64,000 bases of DNA, from contig JBAZSF010000001.1 of the NCBI GenBank assembly GCA_041662525.1, positions 41,383-105,382 of the forward strand, written 5' to 3'. Position 1 is the first letter of the stretch; the number at the start of each line of letters is the position of its first letter. Under the pieces are notes generated by a model, which did not search any database, was not told the origin of the DNA, and saw only the letters and a program-made list of their open reading frames with translations. The position numbers and the translations under genes were made by a program. Below are positions 2,962 to 61,190 of this stretch, piece by piece. Source of the stretch: Minisyncoccota bacterium (GTDB taxonomy: Bacteria; Patescibacteriota; Minisyncoccia; Phycocordibacterales; UBA9973).

Positions 2962-3564
2962 TTATTGGTTGTTTTTGTATTTTCTAATTAAGAATAAAAT
3001 AATGGCCATTATTGAAGCCCCTATTACTGTCATTATCATGTCTTTTTGCCCGTCAAAAAGGTCTGTTGAGCCATAAAATGAAGCCGCCAGGACAGGATTG
3101 ACTGTCAGAGCAGCGATCAATTCAAAAATCTCATAAAGCCCTGAAAGCGCAAACATGGTGGAGAGGGTAATATAATAATTCCATCCGTTTTCTTTTTCAT
3201 AATTTTTATTGAAATGCGATACAATCTCTTGCATTGGGTAAAACACTAAAAAGCCAAAAGAAAAATGAACCAGTTTGTCATACATATTTATTGATGATCC
3301 GAACAGTCGCCCTATTTCATATCCGAAAGGCACCTGTGTCACTCCATAATGGGAGGTTATTAAGGGCAGCACAATATACACAAGCAAGAAAGTATAAGAA
3401 ATATTTGAGAGTTTTTTATAGCGTTCTAAAATAAAAAGTGCCACTATCGCCAATACTACTGGGATATTCTCCAGCGCCCAATAAGACAAAGATGGGGGAT
3501 TAATTCCCGACCAAATGAAAACTATAATAAAAATTACTAACAAAAATAATTTATATTTATTCAT
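2962..3564 (-). CDS. polytopic membrane protein, function unknown
   Basis: 200 aa with multiple hydrophobic helices; clean ORF convergent with dnaX. Confidence 0.5.
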   Translation of the reverse strand: MNKYKLFLLVIFIIVFIWSGINPPSLSYWALENIPVVLAIVALFILERYKKLSNISYTFLLVYIVLPLITSHYGVTQVPFGYEIGRLFGSSINMYDKLVHFSFGFLVFYPMQEIVSHFNKNYEKENGWNYYITLSTMFALSGLYEIFELIAALTVNPVLAASFYGSTDLFDGQKDMIMTVIGASIMAIILFLIRKYKNNQ

Positions 3565-5854: not shown

Positions 5855-5896
5855 GACGACCTGCCTCGCCTTGATGCGAGTCAAGGCGGGTCTCCC
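5855..5896. repeat. GC-rich hairpin (CGCCTTGA-tgcgag-TCAAGGCG core), a member of the GC-rich palindrome family
   Basis: gacgacctgcctcgccttgatgcgagtcaaggcgggtctccc lies in the AT-rich promoter region between the GIY-YIG and ogt genes. Confidence 0.5.
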
Positions 5897-5983
5897 AATA
5901 TCTTTAAAACACATAATTTATAACATAAATCTTAACAAAAATCTATATTATTTGGTATGATGACTGAGACTAAATAAATTATT

Positions 5984-8308: not shown

Positions 8309-9523
8309 ATGGAAAATAATGATTATAATATATGGCTTGAAGGAATAGAACGCGTAAAATATCCGCGAGATGTTTTGCCTGATGAGATAGAGACTTTAAT
8401 CGTGGGCGGAGGTATTACTGGAATAACTTGCGCATATTTACTGGCCAAAGATGGAAGACAAGTAGTTTTACTAGAAAAAAGAAAATTGGGAGAATGGATA
8501 ACCTACTGCACTACAGGTTTTTTGACGCAAGTGATAGACACAGATCCAGTTAGATTAATAAAATTATTCGGGGAAGAAAAAGCTCGTCTCATTTTCGCCT
8601 CACATCTAGAGGCCATAAATAATATAGAGAATATAATAAAATCTGAAATGATTGAATGCGAATTTAAACGTTGCAGTGATTATGTTTATGCCAACAGTAA
8701 AAAAGAAGAGAAAAAGCTTATAAAAATGGCAGAAACCTTCAAAAAGTTGAACGTAAAATGCGAATATAAAAAAGATAATAATTTAAACTTCTCCAAGTTT
8801 GGTTATATTGAAATGCCCAACCAGGCAAAATTTCACGTGATGAAATATCTAACTGCTTTGGCTAAAATAGCGAACGAACATGGCGCGATAATAGCTGAAG
8901 ACACAGAAGTTTTGAGCTTAAATGATAAAAAGGATTTTGTGGAGGTTGTAGTAAAAGATGTCGGAACCATAAAAGCCCGAAAAGTTTTTTCAGCCACCCA
9001 TAACCCTTTTGGGAAGCCATCTCATCTAATACATAAAATAAATACATATCGCACCTATGTTCTAGAATATAATATTCCGGTAAATTCTATTGTTGAGGCC
9101 ACCTATGAGGACAGTTTAAAACCATATCATTATTTTAGAATTGACCCGAAAAATGGTTTTGATAGAATGATTATCGGCGGTGCAGATCACTTAAATGTGA
9201 TTCAGATGAACAGGGAATTAAATTTCGAGACAATGAGAAATTATGTAAAAGAAATATTCAGAAAGACGTTTGAATATTCAGGCCTTGAAGAGATGCGCCA
9301 TTGGTCCGGAGTTATATTAGAGCCAGTCGATGGAATTGCTTTTCTAGGGGAATTAAAAGATAGTAATATTTTCCAAGCTTTTGCTTTTTCAGGAAATGGG
9401 ATGACTTATAGTTACATCGCTAGTAAAATCTTTTTTGATAAACTAACTTCACAAAAAAATATTTATACAGAAATTTATGATATCAAACGTAAAATTTCAT
9501 GGAGAGCAAATATCTTTGGTTAA
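8309..9523 (+). CDS. FAD-dependent oxidoreductase (DAO / glycine-oxidase-like family)
   Basis: N-terminal dinucleotide fold LIVGGGITGITCAYLLAKDGRQVVLLEK; ~400 aa. Confidence 0.7.
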   Translation: MENNDYNIWLEGIERVKYPRDVLPDEIETLIVGGGITGITCAYLLAKDGRQVVLLEKRKLGEWITYCTTGFLTQVIDTDPVRLIKLFGEEKARLIFASHLEAINNIENIIKSEMIECEFKRCSDYVYANSKKEEKKLIKMAETFKKLNVKCEYKKDNNLNFSKFGYIEMPNQAKFHVMKYLTALAKIANEHGAIIAEDTEVLSLNDKKDFVEVVVKDVGTIKARKVFSATHNPFGKPSHLIHKINTYRTYVLEYNIPVNSIVEATYEDSLKPYHYFRIDPKNGFDRMIIGGADHLNVIQMNRELNFETMRNYVKEIFRKTFEYSGLEEMRHWSGVILEPVDGIAFLGELKDSNIFQAFAFSGNGMTYSYIASKIFFDKLTSQKNIYTEIYDIKRKISWRANIFG

Positions 9524-9540
9524 AATTACGAAACTTGTTG

Positions 9541-9825
9541 CAGGCGTACTTTTTAGAAAGCCTTGCGCAGGCGGACGCGCCGAGCAGTTCGCTGGCGAAG
9601 CTTCGCCAGATAGATTGCTTTATAAAAAGTTATGCCAAGAAAGAGTTTCGTAATTAGATCTGAATTAAGAAACATAAACTTTTCTTCGGTACAGATTTTT
9701 TGAAGCTTAAAAAATCCTGCACGCCCCGCCAAAGGCGAGGCTCCGCCCAAAGGCGGGCCGAGGGAAGTTCTCGGCTCGACAGCCTACGAAACCCCGCAAA
9801 AAGTTATGTTTCTTAATTCAGGATG
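9541..9825. repeat. composite GC-rich structured element: 18-bp perfect palindrome (9592-9609), 18-bp terminal inverted repeats CTGAATTAAGAAACATAA (9660-9677 / 9804-9821) enclosing GC-rich hairpins, and direct repeat AAAAAGTTATG (9624 / 9798)
   Basis: ctggcgaagcttcgccag is a perfect palindrome. gatctgaattaagaaacataa and its reverse complement (ttatgtttcttaattcagga) flank a core containing ccgcccaaaggcgg and ccgagggaagttctcgg hairpins. The local GC content is far above the genome background. Confidence 0.55.
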
Positions 9826-9838
9826 TTATACTTAAAAA

Positions 9839-13595: not shown

Positions 13596-13602
13596 AAAAA
13601 AA

Positions 13603-13627
13603 TTAGGGAAAGCAGAGCTCTCCCTAA
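13603..13627. terminator. terminator hairpin between convergent genes
   Basis: ttagggaaagcagagctctccctaa followed by cgagtatctttttt. Confidence 0.6.
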
Positions 13628-13644
13628 CGAGTATCTTTTTTCTA

Positions 13645-13899
13645 TTATTTTTTATTCTTTTTTTGCATTCTCTTCCATCGAGAAATTGCTCTTTGGGCCG
13701 CTGTTTCCTCAGAGAGGTAAACCGACCCCTCTGACTCCTTGTTTGTTTTAGGTACCAGGAAAGAAATCCTGACCCCTTTTATTGTCCTGGTTATTTTTAC
13801 TCCAGGTAGAACTCTCATAGCCTCCTTGGTTGCAGAACCCAATCTGAATAAATCTGTTTTCATAAAGAACCTCCTTCTAGATTTTTTAAAACCATACAA
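13645..13899 (-). CDS. small basic hypothetical protein
   Basis: 84-aa ORF with a K/R-rich C-terminus; no recognisable motif. Confidence 0.3.
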   Translation of the reverse strand: MYGFKKSRRRFFMKTDLFRLGSATKEAMRVLPGVKITRTIKGVRISFLVPKTNKESEGSVYLSEETAAQRAISRWKRMQKKNKK

Positions 13900-13979
13900 T
13901 AACTTTAAATAAAAAGCAATAGCTAATAAATTATTCGTATTTATTTGTATTTGATTTTCCTATAAGGTAATATGTATTT

Positions 13980-16967
13980 ATGATTTCCCGAATATATGTA
14001 GCGTCCAAAGGAAAAGCTGACTTTATTAACTCTTACTTAATTTCCCATAAGTTGGGGAATGACAAAATCCTGAAAATCGCGGAAGCTCTAACAAACCCTA
14101 TCCTTGAAGAATTTTCTATAAATAAATTCCCAGCGACAGCTAAATTTTCTTATGCCATAGAAATAGGTTTCAAGCCAGGAGTCACAGACAATGTCGGGCA
14201 TACTGTGGAGGAAACTATTATGGACTTATTGCATATTGCTCCGGACGTTGGACGTCGGGGATTCGGACGTCCAACGTCCGGAGCTGATTTAGCAGTTTAT
14301 ACTTCTAAAATTTATTTAGTTTCTAATTCTAAAACAGAAGAGGTTGAGAAGATAGCTCTCTCGCTACATAATCCTCTGATTGAGCGTTCACATATCATAA
14401 GTATTTCTGATTTAAAAAAGAAAGGTTTACCATTAGAAGTTCCTAAAGTCATTTTGAAAAAGGCTACCCCAGTCATAAATGTCTCTCTTGATGTATCTGA
14501 CGAAGAACTTATAAAAATCGGTAGTGGAGGAATAATGGATGATAAGACAAAAGAAAGACGCGGTCCTTTGGCTCTTGATTTAGCGTCAATGAAAGTAATC
14601 CAAGAACATTTCAAAAAATTGAAAAGGGAGCCGACTGATATTGAGCTAGAATCTTTGGCACAAACTTGGTCTGAGCATTGCAAACATACTATTTTTGCAA
14701 ATCCTATCGATGACATCAAAGACGGTTTATATAAAACATATATAAAAGGCGCAACGAATTTAATTCGCAAACAAAAAGGAGCAAAAGATTTTTGTGTTTC
14801 TGTATTTAGTGATAATTCTGGAGGAATTATTTTTGATAAGGATTATTTAATTACTCATAAAGTAGAAACACACAATAGTCCTTCAGCTCTAGATCCATTT
14901 GGTGGAGCCATCACTGGCATCGTAGGTGTAAACCGGGACACAATAGGCTTCGGACTAGGCGCTAAACCGGTAGCTAATCTTTATGGTTTTTGCTTCGGTA
15001 ACCCTGAAGATAAAAGATCACTCTTTCGTGATAAAAATCTAACTCAAAAAATGCTTTCACCGAAAAGAATTATGGAGGGTGTAGTAAAAGGAATAAATGT
15101 TGGTGGAAATTGTTCTGGTATACCGACTCTTTCTGGTTTCGTTCGTTATGATGATAGATATAGAGGAAAGCCTTTGGTTTTTGCTGGTACGGTAGGGTTG
15201 ATTCCAAGAAATTTACCAGCCTCACCGAGTCTAGGCGGGCCCACCTTGGAAGGAAAAAAAAGGCTTTCACATCTCAAAAAAGCGCAAAACGGAGATTATG
15301 TCGTAGTTGTCGGAGGGAGAGTAGGTCTAGATGGTATTCATGGGGCGACTTTTTCTTCAGTGGTGATGGATTCAAGTTCTCCGGCGACTGCAGTGCAAAT
15401 CGGTGACCCAATAACTCAGAAAAAATTAAGTGATGCATTAATCAAAGAAGCGCGAGATCTGAATTTATATAACAGCATCACAGACAATGGCGCTGGAGGA
15501 ATTTCTTGTTCAGTTGCTGAAATGGCAAAAGAATGTGGCGGTGCAAAAGTTTCTTTAGAAAAAGTTCCATTAAAATACCCCGATCTTCGTCCATGGGAAA
15601 TTTGGATTTCAGAATCACAGGAACGTATGACTTTATCTGTGCCAAAGAAAAAATGGAATTTATTTAAAGAATTAATGGAAAAGAGAGGAGTAGAAGCTAC
15701 TATCATTGGAGAATTCACAAATTCTGGTAAATGTATTGTGGAATATTCTAATAAAAAAATCATGGATATTCCTATGGATTTTTTGCATGATGGTTTGCCG
15801 GAACAGCATTTATATACAAAACCCATTCAATTCACCTCTCCCCAAACCCCTCTCCATTATTTAGATAATGGAGAGGGGAAAGCAAGGGGTGAGGATTATA
15901 CGAAAGCCTTAGAAAAATTACTCGGTAGTAAAAATATCAGTGGATTTTCTTTTATTTCAGAGCAGTATGATCACGAAGTTCAAGGATCTTCTGTTTTAAA
16001 ACCACTCTCTGGACGAGGTCGTATCAATACCGATGCACAAGTTTTTCAGCCTGTTTTAAATTCAAACAAAGGAGTCATTCTATCTTCGAGCACTTATCCT
16101 TCATATGGAGACATTAGTACTTATCATATGGCCGCCTGCGCTATCGATAATGCTATTAGAAATACTCTTTGCGCTGGTGGAACACTTACACACTTAGCAA
16201 TTTTGGACAATTTCTGCTGGTGTTCATCCTATGATCAAACACGTTTAGCACAGCTCGTAGATTCAGTAAAAGCTTGTTACGACTATGCCGTCGGTTATGG
16301 AACACCCTTTATTTCTGGTAAGGATAGTATGTTTAATGACTTTAGGGGTTACGATAGTGACGGTAACCATGTGACTGTTTCTATCCCACCGACACTTCTT
16401 ATTTCAACGATTAGTGTTATGCCCGATTTAAATAAAACTGTTTCTCCAGAATTTAAAAATATAGGTGATATAATTTATTTATTAGGAGAAACAAATGATG
16501 AACTCGGAGGAGGAGAATATCTTAAAATGCTTGGAGCTATTGGCAACATTGTGCCCAAAGTAAATTTAAAAAAGAATATCAAAACTTATCGCGCCCTAGA
16601 AAAAGCAATTCAAAAAGAATTAATAGTTTCGGCAATGTCTGTTAATTCTGGCGGGCTGGCTATAGCACTCGCCAAAGCATGCGTAGGAGGAATGGTTGGA
16701 TGTAATGTTTCCCTTGACCCCATAGGCAAGATCTATGGGGTAGATGTAAAACTTTTCTCTGAAAGTCAGGGAAGGATTTTAGTTTCTGTAAATCCTAAAA
16801 ATATTTTAGGATTTGAAAAATTAATGAAGAATATTTTTTATGCCAAGTTGGGCAAAGTGGCCAAAGATAGTAAATTTGTTATTACGGATGGAAATAAAAA
16901 GATAATTGAAACAAGTGTAAAAAAATTGCACGATGCTTATCATAAATTTTCTAACTCACAAAAATGA
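13980..16967 (+). CDS. purL: phosphoribosylformylglycinamidine synthase subunit PurL with ~180-aa N-terminal (PurS-like) extension
   Basis: REPTDIELESLAQTWSEHCKHTIF and THNSPSALDPFGGAITGIVGVNRD motifs. The FGAM-synthetase core starts at about residue 215. No glutaminase domain (a separate purQ follows). Confidence 0.9.
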   Translation: MISRIYVASKGKADFINSYLISHKLGNDKILKIAEALTNPILEEFSINKFPATAKFSYAIEIGFKPGVTDNVGHTVEETIMDLLHIAPDVGRRGFGRPTSGADLAVYTSKIYLVSNSKTEEVEKIALSLHNPLIERSHIISISDLKKKGLPLEVPKVILKKATPVINVSLDVSDEELIKIGSGGIMDDKTKERRGPLALDLASMKVIQEHFKKLKREPTDIELESLAQTWSEHCKHTIFANPIDDIKDGLYKTYIKGATNLIRKQKGAKDFCVSVFSDNSGGIIFDKDYLITHKVETHNSPSALDPFGGAITGIVGVNRDTIGFGLGAKPVANLYGFCFGNPEDKRSLFRDKNLTQKMLSPKRIMEGVVKGINVGGNCSGIPTLSGFVRYDDRYRGKPLVFAGTVGLIPRNLPASPSLGGPTLEGKKRLSHLKKAQNGDYVVVVGGRVGLDGIHGATFSSVVMDSSSPATAVQIGDPITQKKLSDALIKEARDLNLYNSITDNGAGGISCSVAEMAKECGGAKVSLEKVPLKYPDLRPWEIWISESQERMTLSVPKKKWNLFKELMEKRGVEATIIGEFTNSGKCIVEYSNKKIMDIPMDFLHDGLPEQHLYTKPIQFTSPQTPLHYLDNGEGKARGEDYTKALEKLLGSKNISGFSFISEQYDHEVQGSSVLKPLSGRGRINTDAQVFQPVLNSNKGVILSSSTYPSYGDISTYHMAACAIDNAIRNTLCAGGTLTHLAILDNFCWCSSYDQTRLAQLVDSVKACYDYAVGYGTPFISGKDSMFNDFRGYDSDGNHVTVSIPPTLLISTISVMPDLNKTVSPEFKNIGDIIYLLGETNDELGGGEYLKMLGAIGNIVPKVNLKKNIKTYRALEKAIQKELIVSAMSVNSGGLAIALAKACVGGMVGCNVSLDPIGKIYGVDVKLFSESQGRILVSVNPKNILGFEKLMKNIFYAKLGKVAKDSKFVITDGNKKIIETSVKKLHDAYHKFSNSQK
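14238..14284. repeat. 47-nt perfect GC-rich palindrome inserted in frame in purL
   Basis: gctccggacgttggacgtc-ggggattcg-gacgtccaacgtccggagc has a 19-bp perfect stem and encodes APDVGRRGFGRPTSGA within the N-terminal domain. Confidence 0.7.
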
Positions 16968-18748
16968 AAACAGAAACTAAACCACATTCGACAGGCTCAG
17001 TGTCTACAACCTGCCAAAACTGTAAAGAAGACTTCGTTATTGAACCGGAGGATTTTAATTTCTACGAAAAAATGAAAGTTCCAGCTCCGACTTTTTGCCC
17101 TCTTTGTCGAGCAGAGAGGAGGTTTGCTTTTAGAAACGAACGTAAACTTTTTAAGGTAAAAGATACTTTTACTGGTAAAGAAATTTTTTCATTATACCCA
17201 GAAGAAAGTGGCAGAAAAATTATTACTCAAGAAGAGTGGTATGGGGATGGCTGGGATGCGATGGAATATGCCCGCGAATATGATTTTTCTCGACCGTTTT
17301 TCGAGCAATTTTTTGAACTTCAAAGAGAAGTGCCTATTTACAATCTAAATGTACAAAGAATGATTAATAGTCCATATTCTGGAAACGCTACAGCGTTAAA
17401 AAACTGTTACCTCTGTTTTCATTCTAATTATACTGAAGATAGTATGTATGGCAGTGCGAATGATCATTGCAAAGATTGCGTGGATAATTCTCACATTCAA
17501 TATTCAGAACGATGTTATGAATGTTTTTGGTTAGAAAAATGTTATCAATGTTATTTTTCTATAATGTGTGGAGAATCACACAATCTTTTTTTATGTCGTA
17601 ATTGTTTAGGATGCAATGATTGTTTTGGCTGCGCAAATTTACGCAAATCCTCTTACTGTATTTTCAATAAGCAATATTCTAAAGAAAATTATTTTAAAGA
17701 AATAGAAAGTATGAAATTGAATACTATTTTCGGCTTAAAAAAAATGCGAGGTAAAGCTAGAGCCTTTTGGTTAACTCAGCCAACAAAATCTCAACATGGT
17801 CTTAAAAATTTAAATTCAACAGGTTCTCATGTTACACATTGTAAAAATGTGAATGATAGTTTTTTGATCAGAGGAAGTGAAAATATGCGTTACTGCCAAC
17901 ATATGCAAGTACCTGCGAATAAAGATTGCTATGATGTTTCTAATTGGGGAGAAAATACAGAACTTTCTTATGAGACTTTAGTGTGTGGTGAAAATGCCTA
18001 CAACATGAAATTTAGTTTCAATTGCTGGCCGACATGCACGGACAGTGAATACTGCATGGATCTCTTTAGTTGCTCAGATTGTTTTGGCTGTGTGGGTTTA
18101 AAGAAAAAACAATATTGTATTTTCAATAAACAATATACTAAAGAAGAATACTATCAGATAATAGAAAAAATTAAAAAACAAATGGATGATATTCCTTATA
18201 CTGACAAGCAAGGTCTTATTTATAAGTACGGAGAATTTTTCCCAATAGAATTTTCTCAGTCTGGATATAATAATACTGTCGCAATTCAACATTTCCCACT
18301 TACGAAAACAGAAGCAGAAAAAAAGGGATACCTATGGGTAGAAGCGCCCCAGAGTGAATATAGAATTACTATTAAATCATCCGAACTTCCGAATTCTATT
18401 CCTGAAGAAAATGAAATTTTAAAAGAAATTATAGAATGCGAGAATTGTAAAAAAGCTTATCGGATAATGGAAAATGAATTAATTTTTTTGCGTAAAGAAA
18501 ATCTGCCTCTGCCTGATTTGTGTCATGATTGCAGATATGATAGAAGAATAAAGGATAGACTATCGATCAGATCGTATGACCAATCTTGCATGTGCGGAGG
18601 AACTTTAGACGAAACTGGAATTTATAAAAATACCGTTAAACATCTCCATGCAGATGAACCGTGCGGAGAGAAATTTAAAACTGGACACGCTCCAGAAAAT
18701 AAAGAGATAGTTTATTGTGAAAAATGTTATCAACAAGAAGTTTACTAG
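16964..18748 (+). CDS. cysteine-rich multi-zinc-ribbon-like protein of unknown function (594 aa); paralog of 47951..49681
   Basis: ATGA start/stop overlap with purL. About 50 Cys arranged mostly as CxxC pairs. N- and C-terminal C-x2-C...CP-x-CR ribbons; two internal ~170-aa repeats ending YCIFNKQY(S/T)KEEY; CRNCLGCNDCFGC run. Confidence 0.75.
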   Translation: MKTETKPHSTGSVSTTCQNCKEDFVIEPEDFNFYEKMKVPAPTFCPLCRAERRFAFRNERKLFKVKDTFTGKEIFSLYPEESGRKIITQEEWYGDGWDAMEYAREYDFSRPFFEQFFELQREVPIYNLNVQRMINSPYSGNATALKNCYLCFHSNYTEDSMYGSANDHCKDCVDNSHIQYSERCYECFWLEKCYQCYFSIMCGESHNLFLCRNCLGCNDCFGCANLRKSSYCIFNKQYSKENYFKEIESMKLNTIFGLKKMRGKARAFWLTQPTKSQHGLKNLNSTGSHVTHCKNVNDSFLIRGSENMRYCQHMQVPANKDCYDVSNWGENTELSYETLVCGENAYNMKFSFNCWPTCTDSEYCMDLFSCSDCFGCVGLKKKQYCIFNKQYTKEEYYQIIEKIKKQMDDIPYTDKQGLIYKYGEFFPIEFSQSGYNNTVAIQHFPLTKTEAEKKGYLWVEAPQSEYRITIKSSELPNSIPEENEILKEIIECENCKKAYRIMENELIFLRKENLPLPDLCHDCRYDRRIKDRLSIRSYDQSCMCGGTLDETGIYKNTVKHLHADEPCGEKFKTGHAPENKEIVYCEKCYQQEVY

Positions 18749-18795
18749 CGTCGCGCTTTGATGGACGATTGCGCGACATGATTTCGTAAAATCAA
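18749..18795. repeat. conserved hairpin element GTCGCGC-(14)-GCGCGAC + CATGATTTCGTAAAATCAA immediately 5' of the purQ ATG; homolog at 33583
   Basis: Near-identical 45-nt element also precedes mrdA, with a compensatory T-A to C-G change in the stem. Confidence 0.65.
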
Positions 18796-25746: not shown

Positions 25747-27321
25747 TACCATATTATGAATGATATACAAATACTTGTTGTGGACTATGGGTCGCAATAT
25801 ACACTAGTTATCGGCAGAACTCTACGCGAGCTTGGTGTGCGAAGCATAATATTACCTCCAAATAAAGCAGACCAGTGGCTAAAAAATAATACTCCAAAGG
25901 CAGTTATCCTCTCTGGTAGTAATTGGAGCGTACACAACGAAGGAGCACCAAGTATTCCTCAGGCACTCGATACTACTGGTAGAAAATATTTAATTTTAGG
26001 AATTTGTTATGGTATGCAACTTCTAGCGCACAAGAATGGTGGCAAAGTAGAACGACCACTCGATCATCGTGAATATGGACCAGCCATGGTTACCTTAAAC
26101 ACCTTGCATCCGCTTTTTAAGGGAATTTCTAAAAAAACCCAAGTCTGGGCAAGTCACGGGGATACTGTAACCAAGCTTCCAAAAGATTTTGTTTCCATAG
26201 CTACGTCCGGCGGAAATGCTGCCATGAGCGACAAAACTAATAGTGTTCTAGGAATTCAATTTCATCCAGAAGTTGTGGACACCAATGAAGGTAAAAAAAT
26301 ATTACAGAATTTTTTGAATATGGCTAATTGTAAAAAAGATTGGAATCCCATAAATTTGATTCACGAAATTCAAAAAGAAGTTTTAGAAATTGTAGGAGAA
26401 AAACCCGCCTCGACTCGCGGAGGCTCGTCGACGCGAGGCGGGGATAAAGTTATTTTAGGAGTTTCAGGCGGAGTGGATTCTACTACTTTAGCTGCTGTCT
26501 TGGCTCCAGTCTTAGGGAGTAGGCTCGTTTGTGTGGCTATAGACACTGGAGGATTAAGACAAAATGAATTAGTAGAATTAAAAAATAATAGTAAAAACGC
26601 TGGCATAAAAAATCTTATAATAATTTCTGCTGAAACTGAATTTATAAAAAATATTGAAAAAACTATTGACGGAGAAGAGAAGAGAGCAAAATTTCGTACT
26701 GTTTATAAAAAAATATTTGAAGAACAAATAAAAAAAACGGGTGCAAAGTTTATAGTGCAAGGTACTTTGGCAACAGATATCATTGAAAGCGGTAAAGCAG
26801 GAGAGTCAGCCATGATAAAAACTCACCACAACGTAGGCCTTAACTGGAAAGTAGAGGATTTACATCCTTTTCGCAACTTATTTAAATATGAAGTTCGAGA
26901 ACTTGCTCGTGCACTCAAACTTCCAAAAGCTATCTCTGAGCGGAATCCTTTTCCAGGTCCTGGTTTATTTTTAAGAATTGTTGGTACACCGGTCTCAAAA
27001 GAAAAACTGGACCTCGTACGAGAAGCAGACAAAACCGTAGCGAATATATTAAAAAAATATGATGTTGCTAAAGACATTTCCCAACTCATCGTCGCCCTTC
27101 TCGGTGTCAATTCTGTCGGCGTAAAAGGTGATGAACGGGTTTATGGTCACTCCTTGGCTATCCGTGCCGTACAAACAGTAGATTTTATGACAGCTAAAGG
27201 TTATTATTTTTCGGAAGAAATTATAAATGAAATCACCAACTCTCTCACAAAACACAAAAACATAGTTCGTGTATTTTTTGATATGACTCCAAAACCTCCG
27301 GCCACAACAGAGTTTGAGTAA
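25747..27321 (+). CDS. guaA: GMP synthase (glutamine-hydrolysing)
   Basis: ILVVDYGSQYT GATase start, SGGVDSTTLA PP-loop. Start chosen at Met 25747 rather than the ORF-track 25666, which would overlap guaB. Confidence 0.9.
   Translation, partial: YHIMNDIQILVVDYGSQYTLVIGRTLRELGVRSIILPPNKADQWLKNNTPKAVILSGSNWSVHNEGAPSIPQALDTTGRKYLILGICYGMQLLAHKNGGKVERPLDHREYGPAMVTLNTLHPLFKGISKKTQVWASHGDTVTKLPKDFVSIATSGGNAAMSDKTNSVLGIQFHPEVVDTNEGKKILQNFLNMANCKKDWNPINLIHEIQKEVLEIVGEKPASTRGGSSTRGGDKVILGVSGGVDSTTLAAVLAPVLGSRLVCVAIDTGGLRQNELVELKNNSKNAGIKNLIIISAETEFIKNIEKTIDGEEKRAKFRTVYKKIFEEQIKKTGAKFIVQGTLATDIIESGKAGESAMIKTHHNVGLNWKVEDLHPFRNLFKYEVRELARALKLPKAISERNPFPGPGLFLRIVGTPVSKEKLDLVREADKTVANILKKYDVAKDISQLIVALLGVNSVGVKGDERVYGHSLAIRAVQTVDFMTAKGYYFSEEIINEITNSLTKHKNIVRVFFDMTPKPPATTEFE
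26404..26442. repeat. GC-rich palindromic element inserted in frame in guaA
   Basis: cccgcctcg-actcgcggaggctcgtcgacg-cgaggcggg (9-bp outer stem) encoding KPASTRGGSSTRGGDK. It lies between the GATase and ATP-PPase domains and is related to the dnaX element. Confidence 0.65.
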
Positions 27322-29378: not shown

Positions 29379-29424
29379 AGGCCAGCATGCTCCGGGAGGA
29401 AGTGTGCTGGCCTAATTTGTTTTA
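29379..29424 (+). terminator. rho-independent terminator
   Basis: aggccagca-(17)-tgctggcct followed by aatttgtttta. Confidence 0.6.
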
Positions 29425-40176: not shown

Positions 40177-41478
40177 TTATTTAAACATACTTGAATTCGT
40201 TGGTGGTAAATAATACATCGGGTCAAGATAAGCATTTATAGGTGCTAAGGGTTGAGTCAATGATTTTCCAGGGCAAGACTTGCTAGGAAGGTTCTTTACT
40301 TCGGCTGCATTAGGAGCATAAACAGACACATGCAAATGTGGACCTGTGGAATAACCTGTATTGCCACTATAAGCCACTACTGTGCCTCTCTCTACTCTTT
40401 CCCCCACTCTCGCTTTAACTAAAGACAAATGCCCAAAAGCACCAGAAAGACCATTATCATATTTAATAAAAACAAATTTTCCAAAAGAAGCACCCGGGCA
40501 TTGAACATCAGTATCTCCTACGCCAGCCACAATACCAGAAGCCATAGCTTTAACCGGTGTACCTACTGAGGCGCGAAAATCTACTCCACCATGAGAGCCA
40601 GATACATAAAGTCTTTTGGAATCCACTGTTTTGCCAAAAAGTTGAGTTATCAATACGTAATCAAGTGGCCAAGAAAATACTCCGGCATCAGGTAATTTCG
40701 AGGGATCTAAAATATATTTTAATTGAGATTCATAATCTCGAAGCTCTTTTTCAATTGCATTCTTTTGGGCAAGTCTATCTTTTAAAAGTTTTTGATAATT
40801 AGCTTCATTATTTTTTGTTTGTGATAAAAGTTTATTCTTTTCTTTTGTATTTTGCGCCACTATTTTTTGCTGATCAGAAAGTTGTATTTTGAGTTTTGAA
40901 AGTTCATTTTTTGTATCGATAGTCACCTTCCTTGTATCCTCTAAAACACCTTTTGTCTGTTTTAGTATAATTATATCTGCCCTCATTCTTTCACGAACAG
41001 TAATTATGTTATCTACATCATCCCAAACCACAGCTAAATCATTATTGGATAATATGTTTTCTATTAAACTGGTCTGCTCAATTTCATTCATGTTTTCAAT
41101 TTCAAGTTTAATAGATTCTATGTTATTTGTTATAGAATCTTCTTTATTGTTTATATCTGAACTTAAATTTTGTATTGTAAAATTTGTTTTATCGATTTTT
41201 TTTTGAGTAATAGTGATGTCTGCATCTAATTTTTTTTTAGTTAAATCAAGCGCTTTCAAAGAACCATTTAAGGAACTTTTTTGTTGCCCTAAACTATTAA
41301 GCTGTACTTGATAGTTAGCTATTTCTTTTTCTAATTGTAGAATATCAGCATTTTTTTGACTTATTTGGTTTTGAATTTCAGTAGCTGTTTGCGCATAAGA
41401 AAAAGCAAAAGGAGCTAAAAGCAAAATTATTAACAACAGTGTACTAAGCTGCTTTTTGTAATCGTGATATGGTTTCAT
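40177..41478 (-). CDS. M23 family metallopeptidase with N-terminal coiled-coil (EnvC/NlpD-like)
   Basis: Long coiled-coil then LytM motifs HGGVDF...GHLS...GNTGYSTGPHLH. Confidence 0.8.
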   Translation of the reverse strand: MKPYHDYKKQLSTLLLIILLLAPFAFSYAQTATEIQNQISQKNADILQLEKEIANYQVQLNSLGQQKSSLNGSLKALDLTKKKLDADITITQKKIDKTNFTIQNLSSDINNKEDSITNNIESIKLEIENMNEIEQTSLIENILSNNDLAVVWDDVDNIITVRERMRADIIILKQTKGVLEDTRKVTIDTKNELSKLKIQLSDQQKIVAQNTKEKNKLLSQTKNNEANYQKLLKDRLAQKNAIEKELRDYESQLKYILDPSKLPDAGVFSWPLDYVLITQLFGKTVDSKRLYVSGSHGGVDFRASVGTPVKAMASGIVAGVGDTDVQCPGASFGKFVFIKYDNGLSGAFGHLSLVKARVGERVERGTVVAYSGNTGYSTGPHLHVSVYAPNAAEVKNLPSKSCPGKSLTQPLAPINAYLDPMYYLPPTNSSMFK

Positions 41479-42889
41479 TTTTTCCTAAAATTTCCGCTAT
41501 GATAAATGGATCTGGTGATTTATCTAATCCTGACAAGGCAAAACGCACAGGGTGCAATAACTCTCCCCTGCTGTCTAATTTATCGGCTATTAACATTAAA
41601 GCATTTTTAATATTTTCTATTTTAAAATCTTTTTCAGTCAATCCGTCTAGCGTTTTTATTGCTAGCTGTAAATTTTCAGATATTTTTTCAGGCGAAGTAT
41701 TTTTAAAAATTAGTTTTTCTTTAGGGTAACTTGGCTGTTTAAAGAATAAATCTAGCTCCCCTCTCGTAGCCATGTCTTTTACATCCCCCCATTTTGAAAT
41801 TCGTTCTAAAATAATAGGAACGAGTTTTGGATTACGCATTTCTTTAGGTAGCCATTCTAGAATATTTTTTTCTACTTCATCGTAAGAAAGTAATTTTATA
41901 TGCTCTTTATTTAGCCAATTTAATTTATCATCACTCCATTGCGCTCCAGAACGCTGAATTTTAGTTAGATCAAAGATATTAATTAATTCTTCTCTTGTAT
42001 ACACTTCTTTTTCTCCACCTGGATTAAAACCAAGAAATGCTAAATAATTTATCATTGCATCAGGTAAATATCCTTCTTTTTCATAATCTAAAACATCTTT
42101 CGCGCCGTCACGTTTGCCGAGTTTTTTGTTTCCATCCGCACCCATTATCGGAGGAGTCGTCACGAAATATGGAGGGGTAACACCGAGTGCTTCATAAACA
42201 GACAAAAACTTCGGGGTTGAAGATATAAATTCTTGTCCTCGTACCACATGAGTCACCTTCATTTCTATGTCATCCACAATATGCGCGAAGTTGTACGTAG
42301 GATATCCATCGCTTTTTATTAAAATAAAATCATCTAATGCTTCTGGTCCAGCAGAGAGCTCTCCCCATACAATATCATTCCAAATTGTTTGTTTTAGTTC
42401 TACTACCTTGAATCGAAGTGGCGTAGACCCATCCCACACAGATGGATTTTCTGGCCCGCCTAGACTCGCACTAGTCGAGGCTGGTCTATGCTCTCGATAC
42501 AAAAATGGTTTTTTATCCGCCTCAGCTTCTTGCCTAAATTTTCCTATTTCCTCTTCTGTATAAGGATCTGCATATGCCAAGCCTTTTTTTATTAAAATTT
42601 CAGCATATTTTTTATATAATTCTAATCTCTCTGATTGAATATAAGGCGCACAAGGTCCACCGATATCTGGTCCTTGATCCCAATTCAAACCAAGCCATTT
42701 TAATGATTTTTGAATATGCTCTATAGAGCCTGCCACTTCCCTTTCCTTATCAGTGTCCTCGATTCGTAAGATAAATTGACCATTGTTTTTTCTAGCCAAA
42801 AGCCACGCATAAAGCGCAGTTCTTACTCCCCCCACATGCATAAAACCTGTCGGGCTAGGCGCAAATCTTGTTACTACTTTCTTTTCCAT
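41444..42889 (-). CDS. gltX: glutamate--tRNA ligase
   Basis: VVTRFAPSPTGFMHVGGVRTALYAW (HIGH region). Confidence 0.9.
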   Translation of the reverse strand: MEKKVVTRFAPSPTGFMHVGGVRTALYAWLLARKNNGQFILRIEDTDKEREVAGSIEHIQKSLKWLGLNWDQGPDIGGPCAPYIQSERLELYKKYAEILIKKGLAYADPYTEEEIGKFRQEAEADKKPFLYREHRPASTSASLGGPENPSVWDGSTPLRFKVVELKQTIWNDIVWGELSAGPEALDDFILIKSDGYPTYNFAHIVDDIEMKVTHVVRGQEFISSTPKFLSVYEALGVTPPYFVTTPPIMGADGNKKLGKRDGAKDVLDYEKEGYLPDAMINYLAFLGFNPGGEKEVYTREELINIFDLTKIQRSGAQWSDDKLNWLNKEHIKLLSYDEVEKNILEWLPKEMRNPKLVPIILERISKWGDVKDMATRGELDLFFKQPSYPKEKLIFKNTSPEKISENLQLAIKTLDGLTEKDFKIENIKNALMLIADKLDSRGELLHPVRFALSGLDKSPDPFIIAEILGKNETISRLQKAA

Positions 42890-54113: not shown

Positions 54114-54137
54114 CATCGCGTCTCATAAGCGCAACAA

Positions 54138-54177
54138 AAGGGCTGCTCGTAAACGAGCAGCCCTTTACTATTTTTAT
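54138..54177. terminator. terminator hairpin (bidirectional position)
   Basis: aaagggctgctcg-taaa-cgagcagcccttt followed by actattttta. Confidence 0.75.
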
Positions 54178-59080: not shown

Positions 59081-59126
59081 ATGCCGCCCAGAGGTCTTCG
59101 ACCAAAAGGCGGCATTCTTATTTTAT
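59081..59126. terminator. terminator between the convergent paralog pair and trpA
   Basis: atgccgcc-(19)-ggcggcat followed by tcttatttta. Confidence 0.6.
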
Positions 59127-61131: not shown

Positions 61132-61190
61132 ATTAAAAATTAGTTATTAATAATTTAAGCCAGCAGTGGTCCTCTCGGGCACTGCTGGCT
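61132..61190 (-). terminator. intrinsic terminator / attenuator hairpin immediately upstream of trpB
   Basis: Minus-strand agccagcagtg-(11)-cactgctggct, an 11-bp perfect stem, followed by a U-rich tract (ttaaattattaataactaattttt). Confidence 0.65.

Follow-up and report, generated by a model that had tools for sequence, protein, structure and literature searches.

An in-frame GC-rich hairpin in purL of a Minisyncoccota bacterium is one copy of a palindromic repeat family dispersed in Patescibacteria

A 64-kb stretch of the Minisyncoccota (Patescibacteria) contig JBAZSF010000001.1 (positions 41,383 to 105,382; called the window below) carries a GC-rich hairpin of 47 nt at 14238–14284, inside the intact open reading frame (ORF) of a purL-like gene (13980–16967, plus strand) that encodes an FGAM synthase of 995 aa with an N-terminal PurS-like domain and Pfam matches to FGAR-AT_linker, AIRS and AIRS_C. 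The hairpin belongs to a large, dispersed family of palindromic repeats in Patescibacteria, and we interpret it, with a probability of roughly 0.62, as a selfish repeat resembling the repetitive extragenic palindromes (REPs) and the Rickettsia palindromic elements (RPEs), tolerated in a permissive loop of the PurS-like domain. An earlier note, made from the letters of the window, had suggested an analogous selfish palindromic element; the palindromic insertion and the dispersed family were borne out, and the mobility of the element and its selfish or neutral nature are what we infer from them.

The hairpin proved to be real in sequence, stem and frame. It reads GCTCCGGACGTTGGACGTC-GGGGATTCG-GACGTCCAACGTCCGGAGC, and a repeat search returned its two 19-nt arms (14238–14256 and 14266–14284) as 100% complementary and 9 nt apart, where base composition would predict about 8e-5 inverted repeats of such quality per 64 kb. 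The left arm contains the sub-palindrome GACGT-TGG-ACGTC (14244–14256) and the right arm GACGT-CCA-ACGTC (14266–14278); the central 9 nt (14257–14265) fit the GGRATTC-type centre of the family and are not palindromic, so that the term 'perfect palindrome' used earlier holds for the 19-bp inverted repeat and not for the element as a whole. The GC content of the element is 68%, compared with 36.6% for purL and 34.4% for the window; the coding background of ~30% GC given earlier was too low. No match to the 19-mer arm, with up to three mismatches allowed, was found elsewhere in the window besides the two arms, and none of 100 shuffled windows contained it. The predicted folding energies were -47.2 kcal/mol (z = -8.8) as RNA and -28.2 kcal/mol (z = -9.7) as DNA.

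Multiple-displacement amplification and assembly errors can produce inverted repeats, and the palindrome could in principle be a chimeric inverted duplication of this kind. The element and its flanks are, however, identical (647/647 nt) in a second, independent ENA assembly, so the hairpin is not an assembly artefact; it also lies in frame, and five further orthologues, which come from different samples, have related copies at this position. The probability of an artefact is therefore negligible.

The PurL of the window is identical to a protein from a metagenome-assembled genome (MAG) labelled Candidatus Paceibacterota, and its close homologues are all from Patescibacteria, also known as the candidate phyla radiation (CPR; Nomurabacteria-like), with lengths of 941–1030 aa. 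Between ...E(T/I)I and VYTSK, 88 of 106 PurL homologues have 14 residues, typically I.DLLHLKNNSDLA (loop HLKNNSDLA), and the window has 26. The site is empty (CAT CTG AAA GAT AAA AAT GAT TTA) in homologue P0003, with 82% amino-acid identity, whose locus L005 is syntenic with positions 5980–27105 of the window at ~80% nucleotide identity. Relative to L005, the window has exchanged LKDKN (CTG AAA GAT AAA AAT) for an isoleucine and the peptide APDVGRRGFGRPTSGA, i.e. for the ATT codon of Ile86 (14235–14237) and the 16 codons across the element (14238–14285, plus strand; A87-PDVGRRGFGRPTSG-A102 of PurL, in the family's preferred frame xDVGR...RPTSx). Thus, 51 nt replace 15 nt, a gain of 12 codons; the insertion as such is in frame, as had been noted, although the 47 nt by themselves are no multiple of three, and the frame is kept by the net change of 36 nt. 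Given the short loop in 88 of the 106 homologues and the empty site of L005, the 16 residues are an insertion. A conserved equivalent segment in relatives without the palindrome, which would have spoken against an insertion, was looked for and none was found.

Inserts of this type recur in the same loop of other PurL proteins. They read CCGTCGGGTGTTGGACACC-GGGATTTCG-GGTGTCCAACACCCGACGG in P0013 (locus L002; a perfect 19-bp stem with seven differences from the stem of the window, all of them compensated), TTGCTAGGTGTTGGACACC-AAGATTCTG-GGTGTCCAACACCTAGCAA in P0004 (L003) and GACGTCCGACGTC-AAAGTCCTA-GACGTCGGACGTC in P0009 (L004); P0002 (L001) carries a double element, P0005 (L006) a short derivative, and P0020 a further DVGR...RPTS insert. 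Relationships among the PurL proteins were taken from pairwise identities and neighbour-joining trees (931 gap-free columns), the grouping resting mainly on the identity matrix: P0003, which is empty at the site, falls together with the PurL of the window (P0001), P0002 and P0005, P0004 groups with the empty-site P0006 and P0007 (88% identity), and P0009, P0013 and P0020 represent separate clades, each amid empty-site sequences. The empty-site sequences (the nearest relatives being P0003, P0006 and P0007) retain the ancestral LK(D/E/N)KN loop that the insertions overwrote, and for this reason at least four independent gains at the PurL loop are the simplest reading of these sequences. The junctions and the stem alleles at the loop vary among lineages, and the ATT junction of the window is also present in L001 and L002.

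A second PurL loop, following INKFP, is occupied in P0002, P0003, P0009, P0040 and P0060. P0002 contains three family copies in the two N-domain loops (L001:3163–3200 and 3292–3385), and P0003, empty at the first site, carries in this second loop the monomer GATGT-CGG-ACATC (L005:10154–10166), which is read as DVGH. Decayed or partial copies comprise the L006 derivative, the L005 monomer, and loops reading 'SGSS' and 'PSGA', as expected for turnover of non-essential DNA; at one site, the element may be decayed, monomeric, nested or absent altogether, which is evidence for turnover of the family.

The position of the insert in the protein was explored by structure prediction. The AlphaFold model of full-length PurL was poor overall (mean predicted local distance difference test score, pLDDT, of 51), its N-domain being confident with a dip in pLDDT at residues 88–102; hence, the N-domain was used alone and re-modelled separately (184 aa; pLDDT 78; predicted template modelling score 0.70). 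In Foldseek searches against the PDB, this domain matched the N-domain of the large PurL of Salmonella (E = 5.6e-4 to 3e-3, probability 1.00) and also human PFAS, as well as PurS of Thermotoga and Thermus (probability 0.84–0.93), in agreement with the PurS-like domain proposed in the earlier note. Residues 194–239 align in a sequence search with the linker of large PurL (residues 185–230). Residues 91–101, within the inserted peptide, have pLDDT values below 50 and lie between a helix (71–84) and a strand (105–114) of the N-domain model; the insert is thus predicted to occupy a disordered surface loop, and PurL most likely stays functional with it.

The search for copies elsewhere in the window gave none, and GTTGGAC/GTCCAAC 7-mers are at the chance level in it (3 observed, 3.7 expected); therefore, the family had to be shown from other genomes. 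A first scan of GTDB representative genomes with a loose pattern returned mostly chance matches in high-GC genomes, and its counts are not to be read as frequencies. Among the genome-scan matches listed, those with long stems in low-GC DNA were all from Patescibacteria: Saccharibacteria (L041, L056, L090, L092, L099, L108, L111 and L120, of which L041, L099 and L111 are contigs of one MAG), Nomurabacteria (L035, L057, and L064 with two copies), Paceibacteria (L080, L121), Vogelbacteria (L076) and unclassified Patescibacteria (L025). A second scan of JGI/ENA metagenome contigs with a stricter pattern yielded at least 119 loci, and ~110 of the matches listed were in contigs of 28–49% GC. In total, more than 100 related copies were found in genomes and metagenome contigs of Patescibacteria, in unrelated genes and in spacers. 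Several contigs hold more than one copy (L136, four in 4.5 kb; L180, three in 1.1 kb; L143, L220, L236 and L237, two each). A phage origin was rejected: a single match was obtained in 2.9 million viral contigs, with a short stem in DNA of 67% GC, as expected by chance.

From 55 distinct 47-mers with a 9-nt centre, the consensus nTTTCGG-RY-GTTGGAC-RY-C-CGRAWTTCG-G-RY-GTCCAAC-RY-CCGAAAn was derived. The arms are themselves short palindromes of the form GACGT-TGG-ACGTC or GGTGT-TGG-ACACC, which in the consensus grow to TTCGGACGT-TGG-ACGTCCGAA. Two such 21-nt sub-palindromes (TTCGG-RYGT-TGG-ACRY-CCGAA and its reverse complement) stand head to head in the full element, which can thus fold into a single long hairpin or cruciform, or else into two short structures; monomers exist as well, e.g. 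GATGT-CGG-ACATC at L005:10154. The seven core positions of the arms and the C/G pair adjacent to the centre are fixed by the search pattern, and their invariance is therefore uninformative. The other positions show covariation of the arms: in the alignment of copies (A4), 94.2% of the cells are paired, 10 of the 11 stem pairs left free by the pattern vary in both arms, and 167 cells are doubly changed, compared with 64 ± 8 after shuffling (none of 500 shuffles reached 167); slid registers pair at 31–45%.

The existence of this family bears on the suggestion that the palindrome arose within purL itself, through template switching or through repair primed by a hairpin, and does not descend from copies elsewhere. 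Palindrome correction is an established mutational process, and stems sometimes reach into host-derived flanks, as with the TTGCTA/TAGCAA of L003, which includes conserved D-L-L codons. Nevertheless, the same 40–50-nt sequence, including its non-palindromic centre, is found in unrelated genes and spacers of many genomes, and an element of 68% GC in DNA of 36.6% GC cannot derive from the local sequence; a local origin is largely refuted by the family and is highly improbable.

Where copies sit was surveyed for 94 low-GC copies located more than 150 nt from a contig end (among the matches listed). About half of these (48/94) are in a frame that is free of stops and stays open for 50 codons or more on either side, and their frames are split 37/7/4; in the 37 copies of the preferred frame, the G of GTTGGAC is codon position 1, which yields the peptides xDVGR...RPTSx or xGVGH...CPTPx. 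The host genes are mutually unrelated and comprise gatB (NNKH|element|GYSLID, six loci), purH (YGENAYQKPA..|element|LAIHNW, four loci), a nifS/iscS-like gene (five loci, frame 1), a gene occupied at QDL.V|element|K.LWQ (four loci), a murC-like ligase gene, and purL. The junctions vary between loci, and nested or partial copies are found in L099 (gatB) and, at three positions, in L001 (purL). Non-coding copies are often found in the spacers of ribosomal-protein operons, adjoining rplF, rplR, rpsH and rplD. In L136 (139–4559), L180 (4875–5952) and at least ten other metagenome loci, hairpins stand in successive spacers of such operons, mostly without a T-run.

The recurrence of one peptide raises the question of whether xDVGR...RPTSx is adaptive, i.e. 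a novel loop that serves a function in PurL and in other enzymes. The strong preference for one frame (37 of 48) and the presence of the peptide in several enzymes are in its favour. Frame bias is equally explained by tolerance, however, since the other frames give peptides containing Cys or Trp; furthermore, there is free variation in the length of the loops and in the centres, disorder is predicted for the region, most orthologues have no such peptide, and half of the copies are non-coding. We regard an adaptive peptide as very unlikely. For the reading that we prefer, a tolerated selfish repeat, the sequence of events would be as follows. Hairpin copies would spread, or be copied, at the DNA level and persist in intergenic spacers or in permissive surface loops, the latter if the net length change keeps the frame and the Gly/Pro/Ser/Thr/Asp/Arg-rich peptide is harmless; in the source genome of the window, one copy would have entered the PurS-like N-domain of PurL at the loop between helix and strand, where five loop codons were replaced by seventeen, and the peptide would be a passenger and not an adaptation.

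The two stem alleles (GACGT and GGTGT) are uncoupled from the tree of the host gene. The window and L003 are 86% identical in their flanks and have different alleles, and L002 and L003 share an allele with flanks that are 72% identical (47% at third codon positions). In each of eight contigs or MAGs with several copies, only one allele is present, for which we estimate a chance of ~4e-4 under random assortment. This uniformity within genomes, despite differences between genomes at the orthologous site, together with at least four gains at one PurL loop and with nested or double copies (L001; gatB of L099), is the reason for considering that the hairpin is active throughout Patescibacteria and is copied again and again to the same small set of permissive loops and spacers, through a process resembling homing or gene conversion, without a linked transposase; we hold this to be a possible but tentative extension. 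If this is true, dispersed palindromes of 47 nt would evolve in concert, and the streamlined proteomes of CPR bacteria would steadily receive new peptides in surface loops.

The same uniformity would also be compatible with a genome-wide recognition sequence, such as a DNA-uptake-type signal or a site for a dimeric or tetrameric protein, whose 'dialects' GACGT and GGTGT co-evolve with a receptor and whose coding copies lie where they are tolerated. In the uptake sequences of Pasteurellaceae and Neisseria, coding copies sit where the protein tolerates them, and the frame bias of the hairpin and its liking for poorly conserved loops resemble this. The density of one copy in 64 kb is, however, far too low for such a signal, single cores are at the chance level in the window, and copies are nearly always the full double palindrome and not single cores; a recognition sequence is thus quite unlikely.

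Several observations weigh against a tolerated selfish repeat. The window holds a single copy, and the search pattern fixes the GTTGGAC core, so that decayed copies and other cores are under-sampled. Each purL insertion costs 4–6 loop codons, and neither a target-site duplication nor a clean insertion junction was found at the purL insertions. No transposase family recurs beside the copies, as judged from 1952 clustered ORFs of 110 loci with representatives inspected by eye and not by a Pfam scan; the recurrent neighbour families are the ribosomal proteins L6, L18, S8 and L4, GatB, and NifS-like, TatD-like and MurC-like (ligase) proteins. Lastly, the third codon positions of the host genes are near saturation (30–65% identity) and the elements are still ~94–96% paired, which selection for structure could explain.

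This last point leads to another explanation, namely that the hairpin is a selected cis-acting structure regulating purL and other operons, through mRNA processing or stability, a translational pause, a DNA cruciform or a protein-binding site. Such a structure would account for the many compensated changes, among them one stem pair that is changed on both sides between P0001 and P0002 by two synonymous substitutions (CCG>CCA and TCC>TCT; CCGG>CCAG paired with CCGG>CTGG), for the occupation of the same ribosomal-protein operon spacers in at least ten loci, and for the conservation of core and centre motifs across classes of Patescibacteria. It fits less well with the closest relatives, which have no element and keep the ancestral loop, with the patchy presence of the element and with its decayed copies. 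Moreover, among the 38 mismatches in the 1020 pairs of 54 distinct coding copies, 15 are G.T, 12 are A.C and 11 are other on the sense strand; there is no mRNA-strand bias, and G.U pairs are not favoured, which fits a DNA-level element. There is also no U-tract or terminator signature at the site and no Rfam family, and a common regulatory logic is not obvious for a hairpin of -47 kcal/mol in the essential coding sequence of unrelated genes. On balance, a regulatory structure appears unlikely, though less so than a recognition sequence. For the selfish repeat, the complementarity of the arms may instead be kept by recent copying or by correction within the palindrome (template switching).

Other known types of hairpin were tried and rejected. 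An intrinsic terminator does not apply, for a scan of positions 13600–15000 gave no terminator-like site, and the hairpin lies inside an ORF and is followed by TGATTTAGCA, with no T-run; some intergenic family copies have A/T-run flanks, e.g. L185 and L153. An integron attC site was dismissed because the GTTGGAC/GTCCAAC motifs fit GTTRRRY/RYYYAAC in reversed order; in addition, attC stems are imperfect, with extrahelical bases, and adjoin cassettes, whereas the hairpin has a perfect stem and lies outside any cassette context. A miniature inverted-repeat transposable element was likewise set aside, as the whole element is palindromic, flanking direct repeats are missing, and insertion is accompanied by loss of loop codons. 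With Rfam 15, the window passes the gathering threshold for tRNA-Gln only, and at the hairpin only sub-threshold matches to generic hairpins were obtained.

Among described repeats, the CGTC-type REPs, which include RPE-4 and RPE-6 of Rickettsia conorii and the Neisseria dRS3 repeat, are the closest parallel (Di Nocera et al. 2013, PMC3733652). They are small GC-rich stem-loops, mostly organized as head-to-head dimers with the capacity to form a single large hairpin, and are located between genes and also in frame within genes, where they encode 20–30 residues, without a dedicated transposase; an unpaired CGTC (or TGTC/CCTC) stands at one end of a stem of 8–9 bp with a loop of 4–5 nt, followed by a 3-nt tail, CCA, and Patescibacteria are absent from the phyla listed (PMC3733652). 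The hairpin family shares with them the head-to-head dimers, the intragenic in-frame units (roughly 15–30 residues in both groups) and the lack of a transposase recurring nearby. Monomers also exist in the hairpin family, its sub-unit has a 9-bp stem and a TGG/CCA triplet, and its GACGT allele contains CGTC. In contrast to the REPs, this CGTC is paired inside the stem and is replaced by CACC in the GGTGT allele, the sub-unit TTCGGACGT-TGG-ACGTCCGAA has a 3-nt centre in which CCA is the loop and not a tail, and the dimer is essentially without spacer and forms near-perfect stems of 19–25 bp. Since the CGTC tag is paired and absent from one allele and the CCA-tail arrangement is missing, the family was filed as REP-like only and not as a member of the CGTC superfamily, a distinction drawn from the published description of that superfamily.

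The classic RPEs, to which the hairpin was first likened, are ~100–150 bp long, encode 30–50 residues and are confined to Rickettsia (Ogata et al. 2000, via PMC10969869). RPE-1 and its relatives resemble the purL element as palindromic repeats placed in frame in unrelated housekeeping genes of a reduced genome, with a fold that is apparently compatible; the purL element differs in its length of 47 nt and its unrelated host lineage, and the likeness, compared by description, is one of behaviour only, with no sign of a common sequence. By analogy, the hairpin would therefore stand closer to REP-type repeats, including the short RPE-4 and RPE-6, than to the classic RPEs. The GTAG REPs mobilized by RAYT (IS200/IS605-type Y1) transposases are similar as short palindromes close to gene 3' ends or within operon spacers, with families that differ between genomes; the hairpin consensus, however, has no GTAG, half of the hairpin copies are intragenic, and no Y1 transposase recurs beside them in the ORFs of ~110 loci (whole genomes were not searched). 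Yeast mitochondrial GC clusters provide a further parallel as short GC-rich palindromes scattered in an AT-rich genome and occasionally in frame in a coding gene; they are organellar, and their sequence is unrelated to that of the hairpin family. Our literature searches found nothing on such palindromic repeats in Patescibacteria, CPR, Parcubacteria or Saccharibacteria, and searches by the core sequences returned only oligonucleotides for short hairpin RNAs. The kind of element is known, and the family, its host phylum, the double-palindrome architecture and the recurrent occupation of enzyme loops appear to be undescribed.

The genomes of CPR bacteria are tiny and usually described as poor in mobile DNA. 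If the proposed reading is true, phylum-wide palindromes add 10–25 residues to loops of core enzymes (PurL, GatB, PurH, NifS-like), which would account in part for the varying lengths and the odd Gly/Pro/Arg-rich inserts of CPR proteins, would serve as a marker by which strains are typed and recent turnover of DNA is traced in uncultured lineages, and would be a second independent case, beside Rickettsia, of selfish palindromes and protein structure accommodating each other. Palindromic inserts can also cause errors in aligning CPR proteins, in matching them to domain models and in predicting their structures.

The window contains other repeats and insertions. A second GC-rich palindromic family (CCMGCCTMGAC/GTCKAGGCKGG) is represented at 2504–2556, 5860–5896, 15216–15241, 26404–26442 and 42451–42484, in frame in the ORF 1870–2955, purL, guaA and the ORF 41444–42889 and once in a spacer; 39 nt at the guaA copy are missing from the syntenic L005. 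Outside the window, one match was found in 130 low-GC loci (L165:3849), so this family looks lineage-specific. Within purL, a third variable site (15836–15878; aa ~620–633) carries a small palindrome, CCCCTCTCCATTAT/ATAATGGAGAGGGG, and the inserts of orthologues at this site are very different and comprise up to ~30 residues.

Downstream of purL, the ORF 16964–18748 (594 aa) lies between purL and a GATase_5 (purQ-like) gene in the purine operon; it is conserved in L005 (585 aa) and has no Pfam match on record. In comparison with L005, there is a 27-nt in-frame insertion near the start of this ORF (16985–17011) and a 48-nt spacer insertion with the hairpin GTCGCGC...GCGCGAC between the ORF and purQ (18747–18794). 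Upstream, an intergenic block of 347 nt (9491–9837), with GC-rich islands at 9553–9609 and 9712–9785 and without Rfam or tRNA matches, is missing from L005, in which the flanking genes overlap. Finally, intergenic GC-rich hairpins at 29380–29412, 54137–54166, 59083–59113 and 61158–61190, unrelated in sequence to both repeat families, are probable terminators.

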